From the NCBI RefSeq assembly GCF_044324875.1, contig NZ_CP172185.1: a stretch of DNA of 64,000 nucleotides. The stretch is one strand, 5' to 3'. The notes beneath the pieces were generated by a model, which was not told the DNA's origin, made no database searches, and saw only the letters and a list, made by a program, of their open reading frames with translations. Of this stretch, positions 2,470-59,926 are shown in pieces. The number at the start of each line of letters is the position of its first letter. The stretch's first letter is position 1. A program made the position numbers and the translations under genes. This stretch comes from Escherichia coli. GTDB lineage: Bacteria; Pseudomonadota; Gammaproteobacteria; Enterobacterales; Enterobacteriaceae.

Positions 2470-3115
2470 AGTCTAACCGTTAAGAACACGTTCCCGAGAT
2501 GAGCGTTTCCGTTGTCGCTCATGTAAAACATGTTTTCCAGCTCACTTACTCTTGGTGAAGTCAGGAAACCCGGCGTTAAGGAGCAGATCGTTGAAATGGC
2601 ACATAACGGCGCAGGTGTCCGTGATACCCATGAACACTGAAAATCGGCATCAATACCGTCATACGGACATTAAAAATGTTTTCGCCCCGGCGGATAACAT
2701 CTACGCCAGTCGTTCACGCTGATGTTGCCCTTATCTTTGAAACTTGATGAGCAGTTAAATTTCGTTGGCAGCAAGGCGCAACAACACTGGTCTGCTTACA
2801 ACACTAAATTGCGGTGTGTTGGCTTATTCTTTCGGGCCACGGAATGATGAGACCTGTCGGGAACTGTTAGCCCTGTTGACTTCGTTCTATATCGGCATAG
2901 TGACCAGCAATGACAGGGGCTGCAACGTCAGAGAAGTGACGAAGGAGAAATACCTGACCGGTAAAATATTCACGCAACCTATTGAACTTAACAACCTGCC
3001 CCTCCGCACCCGCATCAAGCGGCTGGCACGTAAAACAATCTGCTTCTCGCGTTCCGTGAAAATCAACGAAAAAGTCATCGGTTCCGTCATTGAAAAGAAC
3101 ATGTTCTACTGATTG
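2470..3115 (+). mobile_element. Degenerate IS1-family element remnant
   Basis: 2765..3112 translation aligns to the C-terminal half of IS1 InsB (...RLARKTICFSRSVKINEKVIGSVIEKNMFY); upstream frame has InsA-like Cys-rich remnants broken by stops. Confidence 0.5.
2765..3112 (+). pseudogene. IS1-family InsB-like transposase, C-terminal fragment
   Basis: Motif-level similarity to IS1 InsB C-terminus; N-terminal half missing. Confidence 0.5.
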
Positions 3116-3411
3116 GAAGCACTACCACATTTTTCATAGAATACCCAAGATCTTAGCGCAGATCAGTTGAAATGTTGGCACCTATGTTACCAATACTACT
3201 CAATGGCTACTACGGCAGTAGGTTTTCGCTTACCTTTTCATACGGGCAATGAAATGAGGATATGCGATAAATTTCAGTCAAAGATACATAAAACAGGCAT
3301 AATGTTATTCAGTGGTGAGCAGTCCGTTCCGGAGACGGAATATCTTTTTAAGGCCGTATATCAGGGTTTTCCCTTGTTATGGTGGCTGAAGGCATGATGA
3401 TGGTGTTTTAA

Positions 3412-4646
3412 TTGCCAAAGGTCACCGCCATGGACGAAAGGTCCCTCTACGCTCATATTATCAACATGACCGCTCCATGGCAGGTTAAATATCTTTCTCT
3501 CGATGAAAACGCCGGTTCTGTTACCGTCACAGTTGGAATCGCTAAAAATGCCCGGTTAGCCTGTCCGACCTGCGGTAAATCCTGTTCTGTTCACGATCAC
3601 CGTCATCGTAAATGGCGTCATCTTGATATCTGCCAGTTCACCACTATTGTCGAAGCCGATGTGCCCCGCATTATGTGCCCGGAGCATGGCTGCCAGACGT
3701 TGCTAGTTCCCTGGGCTGGCCCCGGAAGGCGGTATACGCTGCTGTTCGACTCGTTCTCTCATGGCTGAAAATCAGCACTGTTGATGCTGTAAGGAAACAA
3801 CTTAAGCTCAGCTGGAATGCGGTTGACGGCATTATGACCCGGGCAGTTAAGCGAGGTCTTGCCCGGATAAAAAAGCCATTATCCGCCCGTCATATGAATG
3901 TGGATGAGGTCGCCTTTAAAAAAGGACATTGTTATATAACTGTGATCTCCGATCGCGATGGTCGTGCACTGGCCTTAACGGACGATCGTGGCACAGAGAG
4001 CCTCGCCGGCTATCTTCGCACGCTTACTGACGGGCAGTTGCTGGCTATCAAAACGCTCTCAATGGACATGAATGCAGGCTGTATAAGAGCAGCGCGTATC
4101 CACTTACCCTGTGCGGTTGAGAAAATCGCCTTCGACCGCTTCCATGTAGCAAAGCAACTTGGTGAAGTGGTTGATAAAATCCGTCAGGATGAACATCCAC
4201 ACCTCCCTGTTGAAAGTCGGCGTCAGGCAAAGGGGACCCGCTTCCTGTGGCAGTACAACGATAAATGGATGACCGAATCCAGGCAGGAAAAGCTGATATG
4301 GCTGCGTGCACAGATGAAGCTGACAAGCCTGTGCTGGGCGCTGAAAGAGCTGGCAAAGAATATCTGGAACAGGCCATGAAGTGAGGAAAGACGTAATGAG
4401 TGGGAGAGATTGCTGGCTCTGGCGGCCAACAGTGACATTACTATGATGAAAAACGCCACGAAAACGATAGGAAAAAGGCTGTATGGGATCCTGAATGCCA
4501 TGCGACACCGTGTCTCAAACGGAAACGCGGAGGCGCTTAACAGTAAGCTCAGGCTGCTGAGGATAAAAGCTAGGGGATACCGCAATCGGGAACGCTTTAA
4601 GCTGGGCGTGATGTTCCACTACGGGAAACTGAATATGGCGTTTTGA
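3412..4646 (+). pseudogene. ISL3-family transposase, split into three frames
   Basis: ORFs 3412..3768, 3675..4379, 4410..4646 together give N-terminal zinc finger (CPTCGK...CPEHGC), DDE core (MNVDEVAFKKGHCYITVISD...DRFHVAKQL) and typical C-terminus. Confidence 0.8.
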
Positions 4647-4710
4647 GCCTTCCCACCATGATCAGGGAAGGCCCTTATATCAACATACCTTTGTTTCCAA
4701 AGAATTCCTG

Positions 4711-6912
4711 TCAGAATAATACTGAGTAACTCAGACCAAAGGTGCGGCCCCTGCCTTTGTAGCCGTACAGTGAAGCAGGGCCGTAACCCGGGCTGTAGTA
4801 CAGTGGCGCACGCTGCCCCCAGACAGTGGTGTAGTCACGGTCGAAGAGGTTTTCAATGCTGAAGCTGAGTGTACCCACCGGAAGCTGATAACTGCCAAGC
4901 AAATCGACGATGGTATAGCCATCGACCTTGTAGCCCTGCGCGTCGCTCACGTCAAAGGAGGTGGTGCTCTGCACTCGCAGACTCCACGGGTCCGGTGCCC
5001 AGCCAATGTAGGCTGTCGCTTTTGATGGGCTTGCTGTCTTCACATCGTATTTCTGCCAGGTACCGTTCACTTTCGACTCAGTTTTCAGCACGTTGAAGTT
5101 CACTCCGGTACTCCAGTCAGTATCAGGAATCAGGTAGTCCACCGCACCTTCCACGCCGTAAATACGGCGTTTGTCGTCCACCACACTGATGGTCAGATCT
5201 TTATTCGCCACCACGCTCTTATCAGAAATCGAATAGTAGGCCGCGATTTGGGTGCGCAGATTATTGCCAGTAAAGCGCCAGCCCAGCTCATAAGAATCGA
5301 CTTTCACGCCTTCCAGCTTGCTGTCGCTGACGTTCACACTCTTTGTTAGAGGAAGATGGCCGTTCACTGCAGCACCATAGATGCCGCGACCATAGTATTT
5401 ACCCGGGTCCGGCAGCTCCACGCCCTGGGAGAAGTTGAGCCATGCCTGCTGGCGTTCGGTGATATGCATCAGCAGACCAGCGTTGAACAGGAAGTTGTCG
5501 TAATCGACTGAGCCGCCAGGAATGGCGTCGGCGGATGTAGCCTTCCCGGCGGCAATCTGCCGTTGCTGCGCGTAGCCGATGAAATCATCAATCTTGTTTT
5601 CAGTGTACTGATAGCGTACGCCACCGTTGAGGGTAAAGAGATTATTGATGTCATAGCCTGATTGCAGGAAGACCGCCAGGTTGGTGATGTCATACGACGG
5701 ATAGCGCCCGGTGGTGTAAATCTTCTTGTTGTTCAGCCCTCCGGAAGCGCTTGCTTGAGCCAGGTCGAAGAACATCTGGTTGGAGGTAAAGCGCTCATGA
5801 TCAGCATCCAGCCCCCAGGTGATTTGCCAGCCGTCCATCGGTTTGCTGTTCAGAGTCAGTTTCATGCCGTACTGGTCGGTGTCCTGCTGTGACGAAGAGA
5901 AAGCCGTCACCTGTTTGTTCGCATTTACCGTCGGGAACGGGTAGAATCGCAACGACTCATCGCGGTAGTAAACCTGACCGACCAGCTCCTGTCCCAGGAA
6001 AGCGCTGTCAGAGTACTGCAGGCTGATCAAATGCCGCTCAGTGCCGGGAATACGGTCGGAATTCAGCCCGTTACTGACGAAGGGCGTGCTGGTCCCTCTG
6101 ATGGCAGAGAAGCCTTTCCCGAGATTAAGCCCGTAATCGTCGTCGCCCTGGCTTTTATAGTACTGTGTGATCAACTGAAGCTGCCGGGATTCATCGATGT
6201 TCAACGTTCCAGTTCCCATGATGTCCAGCCGATCGGAGTACTGCAGGCCGGTCTGGGTGTTATCAAGCAGGGTGGCATCGCCGTTACCGTCAAACCAGCC
6301 GCCAAATTTCTGATATGCCACGGAAAGACGTCCGGAGATATGCTCATTTCCGCCGGAGACAGCTCCGGCAATGCGTTCATCGTGATCTTTACTGCTGCTA
6401 AAGCCACTTTTGGTGCCAGCCTCAAACTCCTTCATGGTTTCCGGCTGGCCTTTTTTGCTCACGATGTTGATCAGGCCACCGGTACTGCCGCCGCCATACA
6501 GGGACGTCGCACCGGAGATCACTTCAATATGGTCGATATTAAAAGGATCTATAGAGTCCAGTTGTCGGCTGTCGGTACGTGAAGAGTTGAGACGCACGCC
6601 GTCAACCAGCACGACCAGCGGGCGGCCACGCACATTCATACCGTAGTTGGTGCGGCTCCGGCTGCTGACGTCAAGGCCAGGGATCAGCTGAGCCAGTGCG
6701 TCCTTAAGCTCTTTGCCGCCCTGAATCTGCTGTTCCAGTTCGGCGTTTTCGATAACCCAGGTGGTTTGTGCCATCTCCGCTACGGTGCGATTGCTGCGGT
6801 TGGCAGACACCACGAACGTTTCATCATCGGTTTGTTGAGCGACTGCTGGCGCCATCATGGTAAGAAGCAGTGGGTTGAGAGCCCAAAGCGTATACTTTTT
6901 GCTTATCATCAT
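4711..6912 (-). CDS. iutA: IutA, TonB-dependent ferric aerobactin receptor
   Basis: 733 aa with signal peptide, TonB box region, plug and beta-barrel ending in aromatic residue (…SYSVLF); sits immediately downstream of iucD. Confidence 0.93.
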   Translation of the reverse strand: MMISKKYTLWALNPLLLTMMAPAVAQQTDDETFVVSANRSNRTVAEMAQTTWVIENAELEQQIQGGKELKDALAQLIPGLDVSSRSRTNYGMNVRGRPLVVLVDGVRLNSSRTDSRQLDSIDPFNIDHIEVISGATSLYGGGSTGGLINIVSKKGQPETMKEFEAGTKSGFSSSKDHDERIAGAVSGGNEHISGRLSVAYQKFGGWFDGNGDATLLDNTQTGLQYSDRLDIMGTGTLNIDESRQLQLITQYYKSQGDDDYGLNLGKGFSAIRGTSTPFVSNGLNSDRIPGTERHLISLQYSDSAFLGQELVGQVYYRDESLRFYPFPTVNANKQVTAFSSSQQDTDQYGMKLTLNSKPMDGWQITWGLDADHERFTSNQMFFDLAQASASGGLNNKKIYTTGRYPSYDITNLAVFLQSGYDINNLFTLNGGVRYQYTENKIDDFIGYAQQRQIAAGKATSADAIPGGSVDYDNFLFNAGLLMHITERQQAWLNFSQGVELPDPGKYYGRGIYGAAVNGHLPLTKSVNVSDSKLEGVKVDSYELGWRFTGNNLRTQIAAYYSISDKSVVANKDLTISVVDDKRRIYGVEGAVDYLIPDTDWSTGVNFNVLKTESKVNGTWQKYDVKTASPSKATAYIGWAPDPWSLRVQSTTSFDVSDAQGYKVDGYTIVDLLGSYQLPVGTLSFSIENLFDRDYTTVWGQRAPLYYSPGYGPASLYGYKGRGRTFGLSYSVLF

Positions 6913-6993
6913 TATTCCTCCACACGGGCGGAAAAAATCAGCCCAAAGATGCTGTGTAGCGAGTTAAAGAAGCAGCCTCCGGCTGCGTTTTCC

Positions 6994-8271
6994 CTAGGTG
7001 CCGCTGCGCCACTGAATCAGGGCGGGCGGCATACTGAGATCGAATAAATCACGTCCCATTACACGATTAAGAATACGTGCAGATCTCCATGCCATCAGGC
7101 TGAGCTGAGGTTCGGCGATGCCATGGGTTTGCATACTGGCGTTGACCACGAAGATGTTGTTCTCTTTCGGGCCACTCCATTCCAGAGTGAAGTCATCACG
7201 CACTTTAAAGGTGTTCTTATCGTGCATGGTGATCAGCGGCATCAGTGAGGGAAGTATTTGTGGCAACGCAGAACGGTAACCTGTGGCGAAAATCACCACA
7301 TCACTTTCCAGGCTCTCCCTGCCCTGATCCAGATGATGCTCCATCAGCAACTTCCAGCCAGGACCACTACTTTCCAGAGTTGTTACCGAGCGGCTAGGTA
7401 GCAGACGGATATTTCTTGGTTTTCTCAGAACTTCAAAACGGTGGTACAACTCACGATAAATGGTCAGTAAAGAATCGGCAGTGATGCCATCCGATGTCAT
7501 TTTCTGCTCATCCAGTAACTGATGGCGAATATCTTCCTCCAGTCCGGAGAAGCCTGAAATATATTCAGGTGTAAAATACTCATCAGCAAAAGCAGCCTCA
7601 TCCAGTGCGTTAAAATTATTCCGCCGGGAGATCCAGTTTATTTCCGCCGCTTCTCCCCATTCCCCGCGTAATGCATTAAGGAACAGGTCTGCACCACTCT
7701 GTCCTCCACCAACCACGGTTACCCGTTTTTCACTAAGGTCCGGCCGACGAAGATTCATTTCACTGGCATGGAAACAGGATTGTGTCATATGCTTCACACA
7801 GGGTGGTAAATAAGGTTGTTTTCCTGTACCAAGGCAGATATTGTGGGCAAAATATTCTCCCCGGCTGGTTTGCACCAGAAACAATCGACGTTTTTTATCG
7901 AAATCAATGTTTTCAACGGTATGACTGAAATACAGGTTATTCATATCTTCAGCAGCCCAGCGGAGGTAGTCAGAAAACTCTTCACGGGATACTGTACGTA
8001 GTCTGCTTGTAAGGAAGCGATAGAACTTTTTGTGCTTCACCAGATAGTTAACAAAGCTGTAGGGATTTGTAGGTGCAACAGCACTGACCAGATCTTTCAG
8101 AAAGACGGTCTGCATATGACAATCCGGTACCAGCATACCCGGATGCCAGGAAAAATGAGGATGTTCATCAAAGAAGAGACAGTCCAGTTCTTCGATCTGA
8201 TGTGACAACGCAGCAATGCTGAGATTAAATGGCCCTGTCCCTACACCAATAAAATCGACACTTTTTTTCAT
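6994..8271 (-). CDS. iucD: IucD, L-lysine N6-monooxygenase
   Basis: 425 aa; FAD GxGxxG motif near N-terminus (FIGVGTGPFNLS) and second dinucleotide motif (VVGGGQSGAD); position in operon. Confidence 0.93.
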   Translation of the reverse strand: MKKSVDFIGVGTGPFNLSIAALSHQIEELDCLFFDEHPHFSWHPGMLVPDCHMQTVFLKDLVSAVAPTNPYSFVNYLVKHKKFYRFLTSRLRTVSREEFSDYLRWAAEDMNNLYFSHTVENIDFDKKRRLFLVQTSRGEYFAHNICLGTGKQPYLPPCVKHMTQSCFHASEMNLRRPDLSEKRVTVVGGGQSGADLFLNALRGEWGEAAEINWISRRNNFNALDEAAFADEYFTPEYISGFSGLEEDIRHQLLDEQKMTSDGITADSLLTIYRELYHRFEVLRKPRNIRLLPSRSVTTLESSGPGWKLLMEHHLDQGRESLESDVVIFATGYRSALPQILPSLMPLITMHDKNTFKVRDDFTLEWSGPKENNIFVVNASMQTHGIAEPQLSLMAWRSARILNRVMGRDLFDLSMPPALIQWRSGT

Positions 8272-40595: not shown

Positions 40596-40646
40596 ATCAG
40601 GCCTCTGTGAAAAAAGACACGGGGGCATTTCGCCCCCGCTCACGGA

Positions 40647-50634: not shown

Positions 50635-51117
50635 CTACTTAATGCACTGAGTGCGGATATACTCCTGTGCCCCTTCCAGTTGCTTCTGCATCGTCATCAA
50701 CCGTTCTCTGAGGGTGAAATAATCCCGTTCAGCGGTGTCTGCCAGTCGGGGGCTGGTTGCATTATCCACGCTGGTGGGTCCGGTGGCTTCACGCACGGCT
50801 TCGGAGCAACTGGCATTGACCCGCAGGCGCTTACGGCCAGCGGCAACATCAGCGCGCAGAGTTTCATTTTCAGCTTTCGCATTGGCTAATTCTCTCGAGT
50901 ACTTTGCATCGAGCGCAGCAACATCACGCTGACGCTGCTGCATGTCAGTAATGGTGGCGGTCGCCTGCTTCAGTTCACTGACTTTTTTATCACGCTGTTC
51001 TTTGTAGGCTATGGCGTTATCACGGTAATGATTGACCGCCAACGACAGGCAGACGATGATGCAGATAACCAGAGCATAAATAATCGCGGCGACTCTGCTC
51101 ACTGATCTATCCCCCAA
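50635..51117 (-). CDS. Rz i-spanin
   Basis: 160 aa with N-terminal TM and coiled-coil; near-identical blocks to lambda Rz. Confidence 0.92.
50697..50882 (-). CDS. Rz1 o-spanin lipoprotein, embedded in Rz in +1 frame
   Basis: 61 aa with lipobox and proline-rich core (…[30 protein letters not shown]). Confidence 0.9.
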
Positions 51118-51632
51118 CAGGCTAATGCGCTTTCCTGGTCACGACGAATAACCTGTCCATAGCAGTTATTTGAACGTATGCGGCAATCGCGCCCACCATC
51201 TTTTATCCACCAGCGAATCGCCTCGCATGCGCCCTTACGATCACCGGCATTCAGCCGCTTATAAAACGTCGACGGGAAACACTTACCGGGGCCAATGTTA
51301 TAGGGACAGAATGACGCAATACCCGCTTTCTGTGCTTCGGTCAGTGGAACTTTAATATTGCGCTCCACCCATGCCAGCGCCTTATCACGCTCAATGGCAT
51401 TAACCTGAGCGCATTTTTCCTTCGACAGCTTCATTCCGGGAAAAACGTGTTTTCCATCCACCACCGTGGCACCGCGGCAGATGGTCCATATGCCAGAACC
51501 ATCGCGGTATGCCGTTGTGTGGTTACCCTCTTTTTCGTCCAGAAACTGATCAAGTATCTGAGGAGCAGATGCGCCAGCACCAATCAGCGCCAGAACGGCA
51601 GCCGACAGGCCGTATCTGATTTTTGCGTTCAT
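51099..51632 (-). CDS. SAR endolysin (phage 21-type lysozyme)
   Basis: 177 aa with weakly hydrophobic N-terminal signal-anchor ([16 protein letters not shown]) and lysozyme-like body. Confidence 0.85.
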
Positions 51633-51755
51633 GTATATTTATCAGGATCTAAAGGTTTATAATCCTGGATATATCAGGTATATAATCCAGTACCAGCATG
51701 TCTCATAAACATACCCGTTCAGGAAAACCAAACGACAACAGATGAGGCTTCAGAA

Positions 51756-52133
51756 ATGAACAGTAAAGAAAATTTGCGCAGTAGATTTTTGCAACTAATG
51801 ACAGAAAAAGTTAAATCAGCGCTACTTCCACTTATGGTGGATAATAACGAAGCAACGAGCAGCATCCTTGCAGACCCTTACGGTAAACTCTCGCATAAAA
51901 CGCTGGATATTATTATGAGTGCATTAACACCCCATATGCTTCAACACCTGAAACAAGATATTAACGCATGGGTGAATGAAGAATTGAGCCCCCCCTGTTC
52001 ATGGGACAGACATTATGCATGGCAGCAAAAAATGAGGATTTTCAATTCATTATCACTAAAGTTCAGAGAACCGAAACAGCGTCCCTTCCCTCTGGAATCA
52101 GACAAAAAACAACCTGATCCCACAGGCCCGTAA
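51756..52133 (+). CDS. Hypothetical protein inserted between holin and endolysin on the opposite strand
   Basis: 125 aa ORF with AT-rich upstream region and a downstream hairpin; no recognisable domain. Confidence 0.5.
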   Translation: MNSKENLRSRFLQLMTEKVKSALLPLMVDNNEATSSILADPYGKLSHKTLDIIMSALTPHMLQHLKQDINAWVNEELSPPCSWDRHYAWQQKMRIFNSLSLKFREPKQRPFPLESDKKQPDPTGP

Positions 52134-52213
52134 TATTTTGAATACCGTGATTATTGATATCACAATGAAAGCTATTCCGCACAGTTATGCCCTGCTCCCC
52201 ACGGGGCATGTCT

Positions 52214-52238
52214 CATGAAACGTTCCGGGCGTTTCATG
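52214..52238. terminator. Hairpin between convergent genes (catgaaacg-ttccggg-cgtttcatg)
   Basis: Perfect 9-bp inverted repeat between the 3' ends of the plus-strand ORF and the holin. Confidence 0.4.
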
Positions 52239-52289
52239 TTCCCGGATTTTGTTAAAAGGTATATTATCCCCTCACTCCCGGGATATTCG

Positions 52290-52562
52290 TCATATTTCTT
52301 TTGGTGCCTTTTTCGCAATCTCAGCCACAGCATGTGCCGTAGCCGGAACATTACCGGCATTAGTTCGTTCCAGAATTTCGAGCAATATGCGGGTTCGTTT
52401 TTCCTGCTCCCGTTTGTTAAGGCGATAAGTAAGAACGCCAAGAATGATACTGAACGCCACGCCGATAATAAATCCCCAATCCTGCAGTGACAGGCTGGCA
52501 AAGAACGCAACAAGTCCTGCGCTGCCGTATGCAGCGTTACTGTATCGTTCGTCCATTCTCAT
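52290..52562 (-). CDS. Holin (class II, phage 21 S-like)
   Basis: 90 aa with two TM segments and charged C-terminus, upstream of the endolysin. Confidence 0.7.
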   Translation of the reverse strand: MRMDERYSNAAYGSAGLVAFFASLSLQDWGFIIGVAFSIILGVLTYRLNKREQEKRTRILLEILERTNAGNVPATAHAVAEIAKKAPKEI

Positions 52563-52977: not shown

Positions 52978-53054
52978 TGGACCGCCACCGGGGACTCGAA
53001 CCCCGCACAGTCAGCTTAGAAGGCTGATGCTCTCTCATGATGAGCTAGTGGCGG
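52978..53054 (-). tRNA. tRNA-Arg (anticodon UCU)
   Basis: Folds by eye: 7-bp acceptor (CCGCCAC/GTGGCGG), D arm, anticodon loop CTTCTAA, T arm CGGGG-TTCGAGT-CCCCG. Confidence 0.7.
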
Positions 53055-53055
53055 T

Positions 53056-53131
53056 TGGTGGCCCTTGCTGGATTTGAACCAGCGACCTGGCGATTATGAG
53101 TCGCTCGCTCTCACCACTGAGCTAAAGGGCC
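53056..53131 (-). tRNA. tRNA-Ile2 (anticodon CAU), ileX/ileZ-like
   Basis: GGCCCTTTAGCTCAGTGGTGAGAGCGAGCGACTCATAATCGCCAGGTCGCTGGTTCAAATCCAGCAAGGGCCACCA; very close to E. coli ileX. Confidence 0.8.
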
Positions 53132-53253
53132 GTATGCGGAATAATACTTATGCCAGTTTTGCTCTGCAATACCCTTCCCTGATTAAATCCTGCATATTGG
53201 CCTACACATGGTAAAAGAATTTGAGCGGTCAACAGAAAATTACTCAGGCAATA

Positions 53254-53967: not shown

Positions 53968-54103
53968 AGCAACACCATTAACAACTCAAAAACATAACAA
54001 TATATTGCATAACAAATGGAGCTCCATGTAGTCAAGAAGCTTCATAGCAGGAAAAACTCATAGCACAATAGCTATCACATTTAATGTTCTGTGTCTTTTT
54101 CAG

Positions 54104-54134
54104 GTATAAAAAAACCCACTCGGCGGCGGGTTTT
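54104..54134 (-). terminator. Intrinsic terminator downstream of the Q-like gene (candidate tR' of the late promoter)
   Basis: Minus strand AAAACCC-GCCGCCGAGU-GGGUUUU followed by a U-run. Confidence 0.5.
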
Positions 54135-54217
54135 GCTTGATTTGCCATTACGTACAAAATCGGCAGAATATCAAATTCACACGAAATATATGCCTTTTAA
54201 TCTACTTTTGCAATACT

Positions 54218-54892
54218 TTACTGTGAAAATGCCGCCTTTTGTTTTGAACGTGTTCTCGTCACAAACAATAAAGCCTCACTATCCAGCCGGTGAAAAATGT
54301 GTTTCATTGCAATCCAGTGACCAGTAAATGTTTTGGACCAGTTTTTGGCTGTCACTCCCGCCAGTAATGCCAGATCCTGGTATTCGTAACCTTCCTTACC
54401 AAAAATTTCTGCTTTTACTGCCTGCGCCGCCAGCCAGATTAATTTTTTCAGGCGTTCCCGTGTTTTCTCTGCAATTTTCCTGTTGCCACAATGGGCCTTA
54501 AACTCTTCCCATGCCCAGTGGGTTATAGTGACCTGATACTCCCAGCAAATACTCCCGCTGTAACACCACAACAACCAGGCTTTCTGATGTTCTTCAATAG
54601 ACAGAACCGCCCGCCGCCATGATGATGTCGAAAACTCAACCGGGCTGACCAGGGCAATTGATGAGCCTTTCGCCAGCGATTGTTTTCCCGGGATTGGTGG
54701 ATTATCCCGCGTTATCATTTTTCCAGTCACTTCATCGCGGTACCGGATTTTTTTACGCCTGTAACGCCCTGTATCGAACATGGCATTCTCCTGCCAGGCT
54801 TCAAGCTGACCTTTTGTTGCCCCACTCAAATCAGCGGTGGCGATAATGAGCTGCTCACGCACAAACTGTAAATACTGGTTATTCATGCGCAC
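54218..54892 (-). CDS. Late-gene antiterminator Q-like protein (Qin QuuQ-type)
   Basis: 224 aa directly downstream of rusA and upstream of the terminator/lysis region; call is by position and size. Confidence 0.5.
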   Translation of the reverse strand: MRMNNQYLQFVREQLIIATADLSGATKGQLEAWQENAMFDTGRYRRKKIRYRDEVTGKMITRDNPPIPGKQSLAKGSSIALVSPVEFSTSSWRRAVLSIEEHQKAWLLWCYSGSICWEYQVTITHWAWEEFKAHCGNRKIAEKTRERLKKLIWLAAQAVKAEIFGKEGYEYQDLALLAGVTAKNWSKTFTGHWIAMKHIFHRLDSEALLFVTRTRSKQKAAFSQ

Positions 54893-55248
54893 TCCAGTTC
54901 TGTGATTTTTATCCCCAGCCGCCCACCAGGAACGGGCTGACCGCGCACAATATTAATTTCATCAAACTGCTCGTCGTCTATGAATAGTCCGGCATGCGTC
55001 AGTGCATCCAGTGGTGCCTTCAGGATATTGTCCAGGTCGCGGCGGCGCTTATCCGGTGGCTCTGCAATAATTTTTATTGCCAGCCTTCCGGACAGGTTTA
55101 ATTTCAACCGCTGTTGGCGAACAATTAACGCCACATCCCGGCGATAACGTTCACCGACTTTTGATACAAAATATGTGCTGCCACGACGTCGCCAGTAAGT
55201 ATTCACCGTTGGCGGGTAAGGCAAAACAAATTCTATGTGTTCAGTCAT
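54883..55248 (-). CDS. rusA: RusA Holliday-junction resolvase
   Basis: 121 aa; RRRDLDN motif and overall match to RusA. Confidence 0.85.
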   Translation of the reverse strand: MTEHIEFVLPYPPTVNTYWRRRGSTYFVSKVGERYRRDVALIVRQQRLKLNLSGRLAIKIIAEPPDKRRRDLDNILKAPLDALTHAGLFIDDEQFDEINIVRGQPVPGGRLGIKITELECA

Positions 55249-56635: not shown

Positions 56636-56716
56636 TATTGTCTCTGATTTCTGTTGTCGTCAACAGGCAGCGTGCTATCATCGAATGGTGTTCTATCCTA
56701 CTCCGTGAGGTTTACC

Positions 56717-56974
56717 ATGCGTACAACCCAACAATTCAGTATTACATTAACTAACGAGATGGCTGACATGGTGCGCTCCCGTGTGGCTTCCGGTGCCTAT
56801 GCTTCAGAAAGCGAGGTCATTCGTGAAGGGCTTCGCGCACTGAATGAGCGCGATAAAGCAATCGAAGCGTGGTTAACGCATTCAGTCGCCCCCTCTCTTG
56901 ATTCTATCCGCGAAAACCCAAACAACGGACGCTCCATTTCACAGGTTCGCGCCGCGATTAGATCCGGGAAGTAG
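56717..56974 (+). CDS. ParD-like type II antitoxin (ribbon-helix-helix)
   Basis: Start at internal Met (MRTTQQFSITLTNEMADMVRSRVASGAYASESEVIREGLRAL); 6 bp before the toxin gene. Confidence 0.7.
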   Translation: MRTTQQFSITLTNEMADMVRSRVASGAYASESEVIREGLRALNERDKAIEAWLTHSVAPSLDSIRENPNNGRSISQVRAAIRSGK

Positions 56975-56979
56975 TCTGC

Positions 56980-57279
56980 ATGACATTTGAAGTCATCATT
57001 ACCCCCGAGGCCGAACAGCAGATAATAAACCTGCACAGATATATAACGGAGAAAGCAGGAGGCGTCATTGCTGACAATTATGCCAATGCGCTTCTTGATT
57101 ATCTTGATGGGTTTTCTGCATTTCCGCATCGGGGCAATAAACGCGATGATATTCGCCAGGGGATGCGGGTAACTCATTTCCGCCACAGAACGATTATTGC
57201 TTTTGCCGTTGATGACAATAAAGTCTTTATCGCAGGTGTTTATCATGGCGGACAAAGTTATGAAACCGATTTCTTATAA
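56980..57279 (+). CDS. ParE/RelE-family toxin
   Basis: 99 aa basic protein immediately downstream of the antitoxin. Confidence 0.7.
   Translation: MTFEVIITPEAEQQIINLHRYITEKAGGVIADNYANALLDYLDGFSAFPHRGNKRDDIRQGMRVTHFRHRTIIAFAVDDNKVFIAGVYHGGQSYETDFL

Positions 57280-57483: not shown

Positions 57484-59926
<2,443 letters not shown>

Follow-up and report, generated by a model that had tools for sequence, protein, structure and literature searches.

In a 64,000-nucleotide stretch of Escherichia coli DNA (hereafter, the window), we identified a series of minus-strand genes in which the gene for a Q antiterminator is followed by a hairpin with a U run, a gene for a membrane protein, two tRNA genes and a set of lysis genes (Table 1). 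The Q gene begins with an ATG at 54886, which overlaps the stop codon of the RusA gene located 5' of it (54883–55248, minus strand), and ends with a TAA codon at 54220–54218. Beyond the lysis genes, large minus-strand ORFs continue to ~25 kb in the position of late-operon and virion genes; of the late genes, only the lysis genes were identified. A search of NCBIfam returned no name for Q, the membrane protein or the holin.

Several other elements were noted in the same part of the window. A 125-aa ORF lies on the plus strand between the holin and lysozyme genes (51756–52133), and the region matching it is annotated as an incomplete pseudogene in a near-identical genome. Among the large ORFs past the lysis genes, a strong terminator-like hairpin is found on the minus strand (40610–40645; −17.7 kcal/mol, T6), the kind of site that a Q-modified polymerase would need to read through. 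On the plus strand, the nin region contains a ParD/ParE toxin–antitoxin pair (56654–57279), opposite to the direction of early and late transcription, and an IS21-family element (57913–59866), which encodes IstA with an rve domain and the IstB ATPase and is located within a hypothetical gene.

Table 1. Genes and predicted regulatory elements around the Q gene of the window, in the order of minus-strand transcription.
Feature	Position	Strand	Details
Q antiterminator gene, Q82 family, 222 aa	54218–54886	−	Pfam PF06323
Predicted pR' −35 hexamer, TTGCAA	54208–54213	−	Invariant in 21 distinct E. coli variants; present in X92588
Promoter spacer AAGTAGATTAAAAGGCA, candidate Q-binding element (QBE)	54191–54207	−	17 nt; putative assignment
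Predicted pR' −10 hexamer, TATATT	54185–54190	−	Entropy 0.14 bit across variants
Predicted transcription start, G54178 (+1) or A54177	54177–54178	−	7th nt past the −10 hexamer
Predicted terminated leader RNA, ~68–72 nt	54108–54178	−	From start and terminator coordinates
Predicted sigma-70-dependent pause element	54153–54173	−	Match by position to the 82 pR' descriptors
Predicted tR'-equivalent intrinsic terminator	54108–54134	−	9-bp stem, 6-nt loop, U7 tract
Candidate own promoter of the membrane-protein gene, TTGACT-18-(TG)TATGCA	54006–54035	−	Kept in phage 434 and in E. coli CNREC_004-43
Membrane-protein cargo gene, 237 aa	53254–53967	−	ORF; no Pfam or NCBIfam match
Predicted own promoter of the tRNA cassette, TTGCAG-17-TATTAT	53141–53169	−	9 nt before the tRNA
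tRNA (CAU anticodon) and tRNA-Arg (UCU)	52978–53131	−	ARAGORN, Rfam
Lysis genes	50635–52562	−	Holin 52290–52562, lysozyme 51099–51632, Rz 50635–51117; Pfam

The gene that the initial annotation had called Q-like proved to be a genuine Q gene. Its product matches the Pfam family PF06323 (Phage_antiter_Q) with 303.6 bits (E = 1e-90) over 216 of the 220 profile positions, and with PF06323 as the only match it belongs to the Q82 family and not to the lambda type (Q-lambda, PF03589). PF06323 is the family of phage 82 Q, one of three unrelated Q families (PMC9388147). The window protein is ~75% identical to phage 82 Q in a global alignment (77.6% over the tblastn match), 87% identical to the Q of E. 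coli phage 606R7 and 61% identical to that of Gifsy-1. A sequence search of the PDB with Q yielded no meaningful relative among the solved chains, Q-lambda and Q21 included.

A CAA-to-TAA change ends the window Q seven codons before the usual stop of the family. In a survey of the stop codons of 88 sequences, 77 were full length, eight shared this TAA (the window and seven fetched loci), and three, including an stx2d prophage, carried an independent TAG one codon earlier. The premature stop (54218–54220, minus strand) can be compared with those of the fetched loci L008, L018 and L039. The DNA 3' of it is almost unchanged, which would fit a constraint imposed by the promoter and QBE rather than by coding. 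On the reverse strand of the pR' −35 region, phages 82, 434, 606R7 and R47_2 all carry TTGC-N6-TTGC, which the GenBank record of phage 434 labels as a CII binding site with the −35 element of paQ. The plus strand of the window reads TTGCAATACTTTAC at 54208–54221, where the second TTGC repeat has become TTAC through the C-to-T change that also gives rise to the Q stop codon.

The hairpin and its U run are located ~85–110 nt past the Q stop codon. On the minus strand, the hairpin consists of the 5' arm AAAACCCGC (54134–54126), the loop CGCCGA (54125–54120) and the 3' arm GUGGGUUUU (54119–54111), and the run of seven U (54114–54108) is followed by AUAC up to 54104. Thus, the initial annotation, which had put a hairpin plus U run at 54104–54134 on the minus strand just 3' of the Q gene, was accurate as to the coordinates of stem, U7 and AUAC. 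The hairpin has a folding energy of −11.7 kcal/mol (mean of shuffled sequences −6.8, z = −2.4; three of 200 shuffles equal it). Its description as strong in the initial annotation is slightly generous: “moderately strong” is fairer because the core has only five G/C-type pairs, one of which is a G.U wobble. At that pair, most relatives have G-C.

A built-in terminator scan did not pick up the minus-strand hairpin, probably because pairing between the A run and the U run consumes the T tail. With our own criterion, a hairpin of −8 kcal/mol or lower abutting at least six T, a scan of both strands of the window showed this class of site to be rare, with only eight in 128 kb of strand, compared with 2.75 ± 1.6 in Markov-shuffled sequence, and the chance of such a site on the right strand no more than ~120 nt from the Q stop is <1%. 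Across the distinct E. coli variants, the entropy of the stem is 0.11–0.13 bit, compared with 0.96 bit for the loop. The covariation analysis (97% of the cells paired, with shuffles equally good) is uninformative rather than negative because the stem hardly varies. Terminators occur at comparable distances in eight other members of the Q82 family, and the window has, as a module of the phage 82 type should, a predicted intrinsic terminator shortly 3' of the predicted pause site. Weak Rfam matches to Phe, Trp and Leu leaders (14–18 bits) were rejected as terminator look-alikes.

Between Q and the hairpin, we identified a putative sigma-70 promoter, TTGCAA-17-TATATT (54213–54185), which falls inside the interval given in the initial annotation (54100–54217), begins 4 nt past the Q stop of the window and lies within the ORF of the full-length relatives, that is, at or overlapping the 3' end of Q. 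In this AT-rich region, the hexamer match alone (9 of 12) does not exceed chance expectation, as 14 promoter-like sites were found in 8 kb where 10.6 are expected; the support for the promoter comes from homology and conservation, not from the hexamer match itself. In phage 82, the QBE lies between the −35 and −10 elements, and the segment from −31 to +30 suffices for the action of Q82 (PMC4914094). The spacer of the window is identical to the 82-like spacer at 13 of 17 positions, with the QBE itself known by location (PMC4914094); it is near-invariant in the Q clade of the window, the four remaining positions differing in the 82/434 clade, and in the relatives the same stretch also codes for the C-terminus of Q.

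Downstream of the predicted start, the window closely follows the pausing signals described for phage 82. In the 82 pR', a −10-like element that induces pausing and has an extended −10 motif starts at +9; GCC occupies +15 to +17, positions +18 to +25 are AT-rich, U stands at +25, and the polymerase pauses at +25/+26 (PMC5001585). With +1 set at 54178, the window contains TG at +6/+7, the −10-like hexamer TATTCT at +9 to +14, GCC at +15 to +17, the AT-rich stretch GATTTTGT at +18 to +25 and U at +25. Thus, all published descriptors of the 82 pR' pause are present at their published positions, and a pause at U+25/A+26 is predicted for the window. The −10-like hexamer is TATTCT in the window as against the TATTTT usual in its clade. 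At the predicted start, the relatives have AAA and the window has G; the AAA start would be consistent with the slippage reported for the 82 late promoter.

The predicted leader RNA (3' ends at ~+68 to +72) forms an inner hairpin (+14 to +36) as well as the terminator, with a folding energy of −17.6 kcal/mol, which is not better than for shuffled sequences (z = −1.5). In the inner hairpin, UGCC...GGCA (54143–54165, minus strand), the GCC of the pause element pairs with a 3' GGC. This hairpin is kept in most of the E. coli relatives and is longer in phage R47_2; a deletion removes it from phage 434, and single changes break it in a few loci. An outer stem, pairing +4 to +9 with +38 to +43, is specific to the window and absent from the relatives.

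The arrangement is widely conserved. A scan of viral contigs gave 80 loci with a Q 85–100% identical to that of the window, to which loci from phages and genomes were added, and the module is present in all 85 relatives with sequence long enough to judge. It is kept with Q in every relative examined, with variable sequence past the U run. Across 21 distinct E. coli variants, the −35 hexamer does not vary, and the −10 hexamer, the pause element and both arms of the stem show 0.11–0.16 bit per site, with the exception of the GCC triplet (0.43); the variable parts are the loop (0.96 bit), the linker between pause element and hairpin (0.62) and the sequence past the U run (1.16). In a genome search, part of the module was matched in 1,106 of 5,426 complete E. 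coli genomes. The matches in phage records and E. coli genomes commonly stop at ~54109, right after the U run, and at least eight different sequences were found 3' of the terminator.

The conservation extends to other genera, with four of the five phages checked carrying the module. The phages of Klebsiella, Enterobacter, Cronobacter and Salmonella with a Q of the Q82 family invariably combine a promoter at the Q stop with a terminator, the U run of which starts 61–110 nt past that stop; a TGATAT-type element a few bases inside the transcript is present in all of them except Gifsy-1. In phage R47_2 and in a Klebsiella phage, an unrelated terminator is found at the same place, which is a functional replacement.

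The closest known system is the late promoter of phage 82. The record of this phage (X92588) stops at the Q stop codon, its final sequence being ...TTGCAAAACTGGATTAA, and shows the same −35 hexamer TTGCAA at the same place relative to Q as in the window. A full-text literature search for the exact 82 pR' sequence returned only unrelated papers. The comparison was therefore made via phage R47_2 (97% identity between its Q and Q82) and the positional descriptors in PMC5001585. Past Q, R47_2 reads TATATT as the −10 hexamer and then AAATCTGATATTTTGCC...GT, with which the window aligns base for base to about +32. The window and the phage 82 type share a PF06323 Q (~75% identical), a TTGCAA-17-TATATT promoter, the layout of TG, −10-like hexamer, GCC, AT-rich stretch and U+25, and a short terminated leader, which is predicted for the window. 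They differ at the four spacer positions, in the start (AAA in the 82-like sequence, G in the window), in the −10-like hexamer (TATTTT versus TATTCT) and in the C-terminus of Q, which is seven residues shorter in the window; furthermore, the terminator hairpins of R47_2 and the window have unrelated sequences. Phage 434 (OL657226), by contrast, carries a homologous hairpin (AAACCCGCTGCCGAGTGGGTTTTTTTT) with the same G.U wobble, which the curated record annotates as a terminator, and it has the same promoter as the window and a homologous membrane-protein gene that follows, although its leader is 19 nt shorter, its pause region is more divergent (TGGTATGTTGTA) and its Q is full length and 73% identical.

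More distant systems resemble the window in layout or in working. The pR'/6S/tR' system of lambda works in the same manner as predicted for the window module, but its Q belongs to a different, unrelated family (PF03589), and its pause at +16/17 and leader of ~194 nt contrast with the predicted +25 and ~70 nt of the window. For IsrK (RF01394), the layout is that of the window, from a promoter that overlaps the stop of a Q82-family gene to a first intrinsic terminator ~75 nt on. In Gifsy-1 (3176–3287 of the fetched locus L006), TTGACA-18-TATATT overlaps the Q stop, and the predicted +1 is the first base of the isrK match (79.3 bits), and IsrK is thereby the late-promoter leader RNA of Gifsy-1. 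The isrK match is followed there by a c4 antisense RNA with a1/b1 targets, a c4-type antisense/antirepressor module that is absent from the window. We rejected isrK as a homologue of the window leader because the window RNA scores only 11.3 bits with the IsrK covariance model, against a gathering threshold of 50. StxS of Stx1 and Stx2a phages is likewise made by termination at the tR' of a late promoter in lysogens, followed by processing by RNase E. It is associated with a Q type of 144 aa and a pR'–tR' interval of 258 nt (PMC7547250), whereas the window has a Q of 222 aa from PF06323 and a predicted interval of ~70 nt, and it does not belong to the StxS group. By position, the predicted window leader is the counterpart of lambda 6S RNA, the short RNA of phage 82 and IsrK.

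Taken together, the sequence comparisons indicate that the window very probably contains a phage 82-type module that regulates the late genes of a lambdoid prophage. The initial annotation had proposed that a late promoter modified by Q, giving a short terminated leader, lies right after the Q gene, and this proposal is upheld by the Q82-family Q, the 82 pR' pause features, the conservation of the elements and the terminator annotation of phage 434. We observed the sequence elements at these positions, found them conserved and linked to a Q82-family gene, and from them propose the following course of events, in which the start site, pausing, Q binding, termination and read-through at this locus are predicted from work on phage 82. 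Host sigma-70 RNA polymerase would start constitutively from TTGCAA-17-TATATT, which abuts the 3' end of Q, with +1 at ~54178 on the minus strand. Sigma-70 would then re-bind the −10-like repeat TG-A-TATTCT (+6 to +14) in the early transcribed DNA, and this repeat, together with GCC (+15 to +17), would hold the polymerase at about +25/+26. If Q is absent, the polymerase is expected to resume and to stop at the hairpin and U7, releasing the ~70-nt leader with a 3' end near 54111–54107. After induction, accumulated Q would bind the element between −35 and −10 and load onto the paused polymerase, which would then ignore the hairpin and later terminators, with stimulation by NusA as in the phage 82 type, and go on to transcribe the membrane-protein gene, the two tRNAs, the lysis genes and the virion genes.

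The membrane-protein cargo and the tRNAs had been assigned to Q control in the initial annotation. This holds insofar as both are co-oriented within the unit predicted to be Q-antiterminated, but the tRNA cassette has a conserved promoter of its own, and the membrane-protein gene has a candidate one. Therefore, these genes are likely to be expressed in the lysogen independently of Q as well. An equivalent promoter, TTGCAA-17-TATTAT, is found directly upstream of the tRNA in most relatives (consensus TTGCAR), and in many of them, for example loci L053 and L002, the tRNA-cassette promoter lies directly 3' of the terminator. In the PGAP annotation of a near-identical genome (L007), the tRNA with the CAU anticodon is tRNA-Ile. 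Homologues of the membrane protein are encoded 3' of the terminator in phage 434, in O157:H7 and in an stx2d prophage, and the homologue in E. coli CNREC_004-43 (locus L008) is named “STM1630 family protein”. In this strain, the Q/promoter/terminator/membrane-protein module (2915–7352 of the locus) is located ~2.5 kb upstream of stx2d, with an HTH protein and three tRNAs between the module and stx2d.

Three other readings of the locus were weighed against this late-gene module. The module might be a relic, in which Q is truncated and/or not expressed from the early promoter and the hairpin merely keeps the late genes silent. The window Q indeed lacks the last seven residues that are present in 77 of the 88 family members, and the IS21-family element (1,954 bp; 5-bp target duplication) separates the replication genes from Q within the nin region and is absent from a 99.8% identical prophage (strain ECCNB12-2). 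However, truncation recurs in the family, the shared stop being found in eight of the 88 sequences and the independent TAG in three others, one of them the stx2d prophage, which suggests that the tail of Q is dispensable. Moreover, the remainder of Q is intact, as are the pause element, the terminator and the promoter. Large minus-strand ORFs occupy the late-operon position, although only the lysis genes among them were identified, and N-type antitermination, as in lambda, usually reads through IS insertions. We consider a relic unlikely, although the truncated Q or the IS21-family element may weaken the switch in this particular prophage. Far less credible is that the hairpin mainly serves as a bidirectional terminator or insulator, which ends the early/Q transcript or a plus-strand RNA, with the promoter hexamers being fortuitous. 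The A run and U run that flank the stem make it terminator-like on the plus strand too, the best promoter-like score of the region falls on the plus strand (53978–54006), and there is a plus-strand match at 54072–54142 to STnc370, a Salmonella sRNA family of Rfam. Nevertheless, the plus-strand tail is merely UUUUGCUU. The top-scoring promoter-like site, which is not kept in phage 434, was dismissed as a probable chance occurrence in AT-rich DNA, and the STnc370 match, below threshold at 31.5 versus 54 bits and almost wholly confined to the terminator, was rejected as the terminator read on the other strand. Such a role would also leave unexplained why an 82-type pause element is kept base for base across genera at the correct distance from the promoter.

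The third reading would add to the late-gene module rather than replace it: the ~70-nt leader could be a regulatory small RNA in the lysogen, acting either in trans or on the long transcript to which it belongs, as StxS and IsrK do. Short RNAs from pR' can indeed work in this way, given that StxS binds Hfq and activates RpoS, and IsrK has been named as a similar case (PMC7547250). The start of the Gifsy-1 isrK match at the predicted +1 of a promoter at the end of a Q82 gene makes IsrK the positional counterpart of the window leader, which itself has an inner hairpin and a terminator with a U7 tail after an A-rich single-stranded stretch; furthermore, the module is partly matched in the 1,106 genomes mentioned above. 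On the other hand, the leader shows no similarity to isrK in sequence or structure, and the fold of the whole leader is no better than that of shuffles. The linker from the pause element to the terminator is the most variable of the transcribed parts (entropy 0.62), with 19 nt deleted in phage 434 and a replacement in R47_2, which argues against a conserved seed region. On balance, a regulatory role of the leader appears quite improbable. If it does exist, the leader would be an Hfq-associated or cis-acting small RNA similar to StxS and IsrK, with part of the module in about one-fifth of complete E. coli genomes and located upstream of stx2d in some strains.

To conclude, the late-gene module identified here represents an element of a known kind, present as a common allele, and does not alter any open question. 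Its value lies in fixing the predicted start of the late transcription unit of the prophage and, with it, the genes that would be raised on induction, namely the membrane protein, two rare-codon tRNAs, the lysis genes and the genes that lie downstream in this orientation. Toxin output is known to be determined in part by the Q/late-promoter type, and the same Q/pR' allele group is located upstream of stx2d in at least one clinical isolate. Thus, the correct annotation of this module helps the typing of Stx and other lambdoid prophages.
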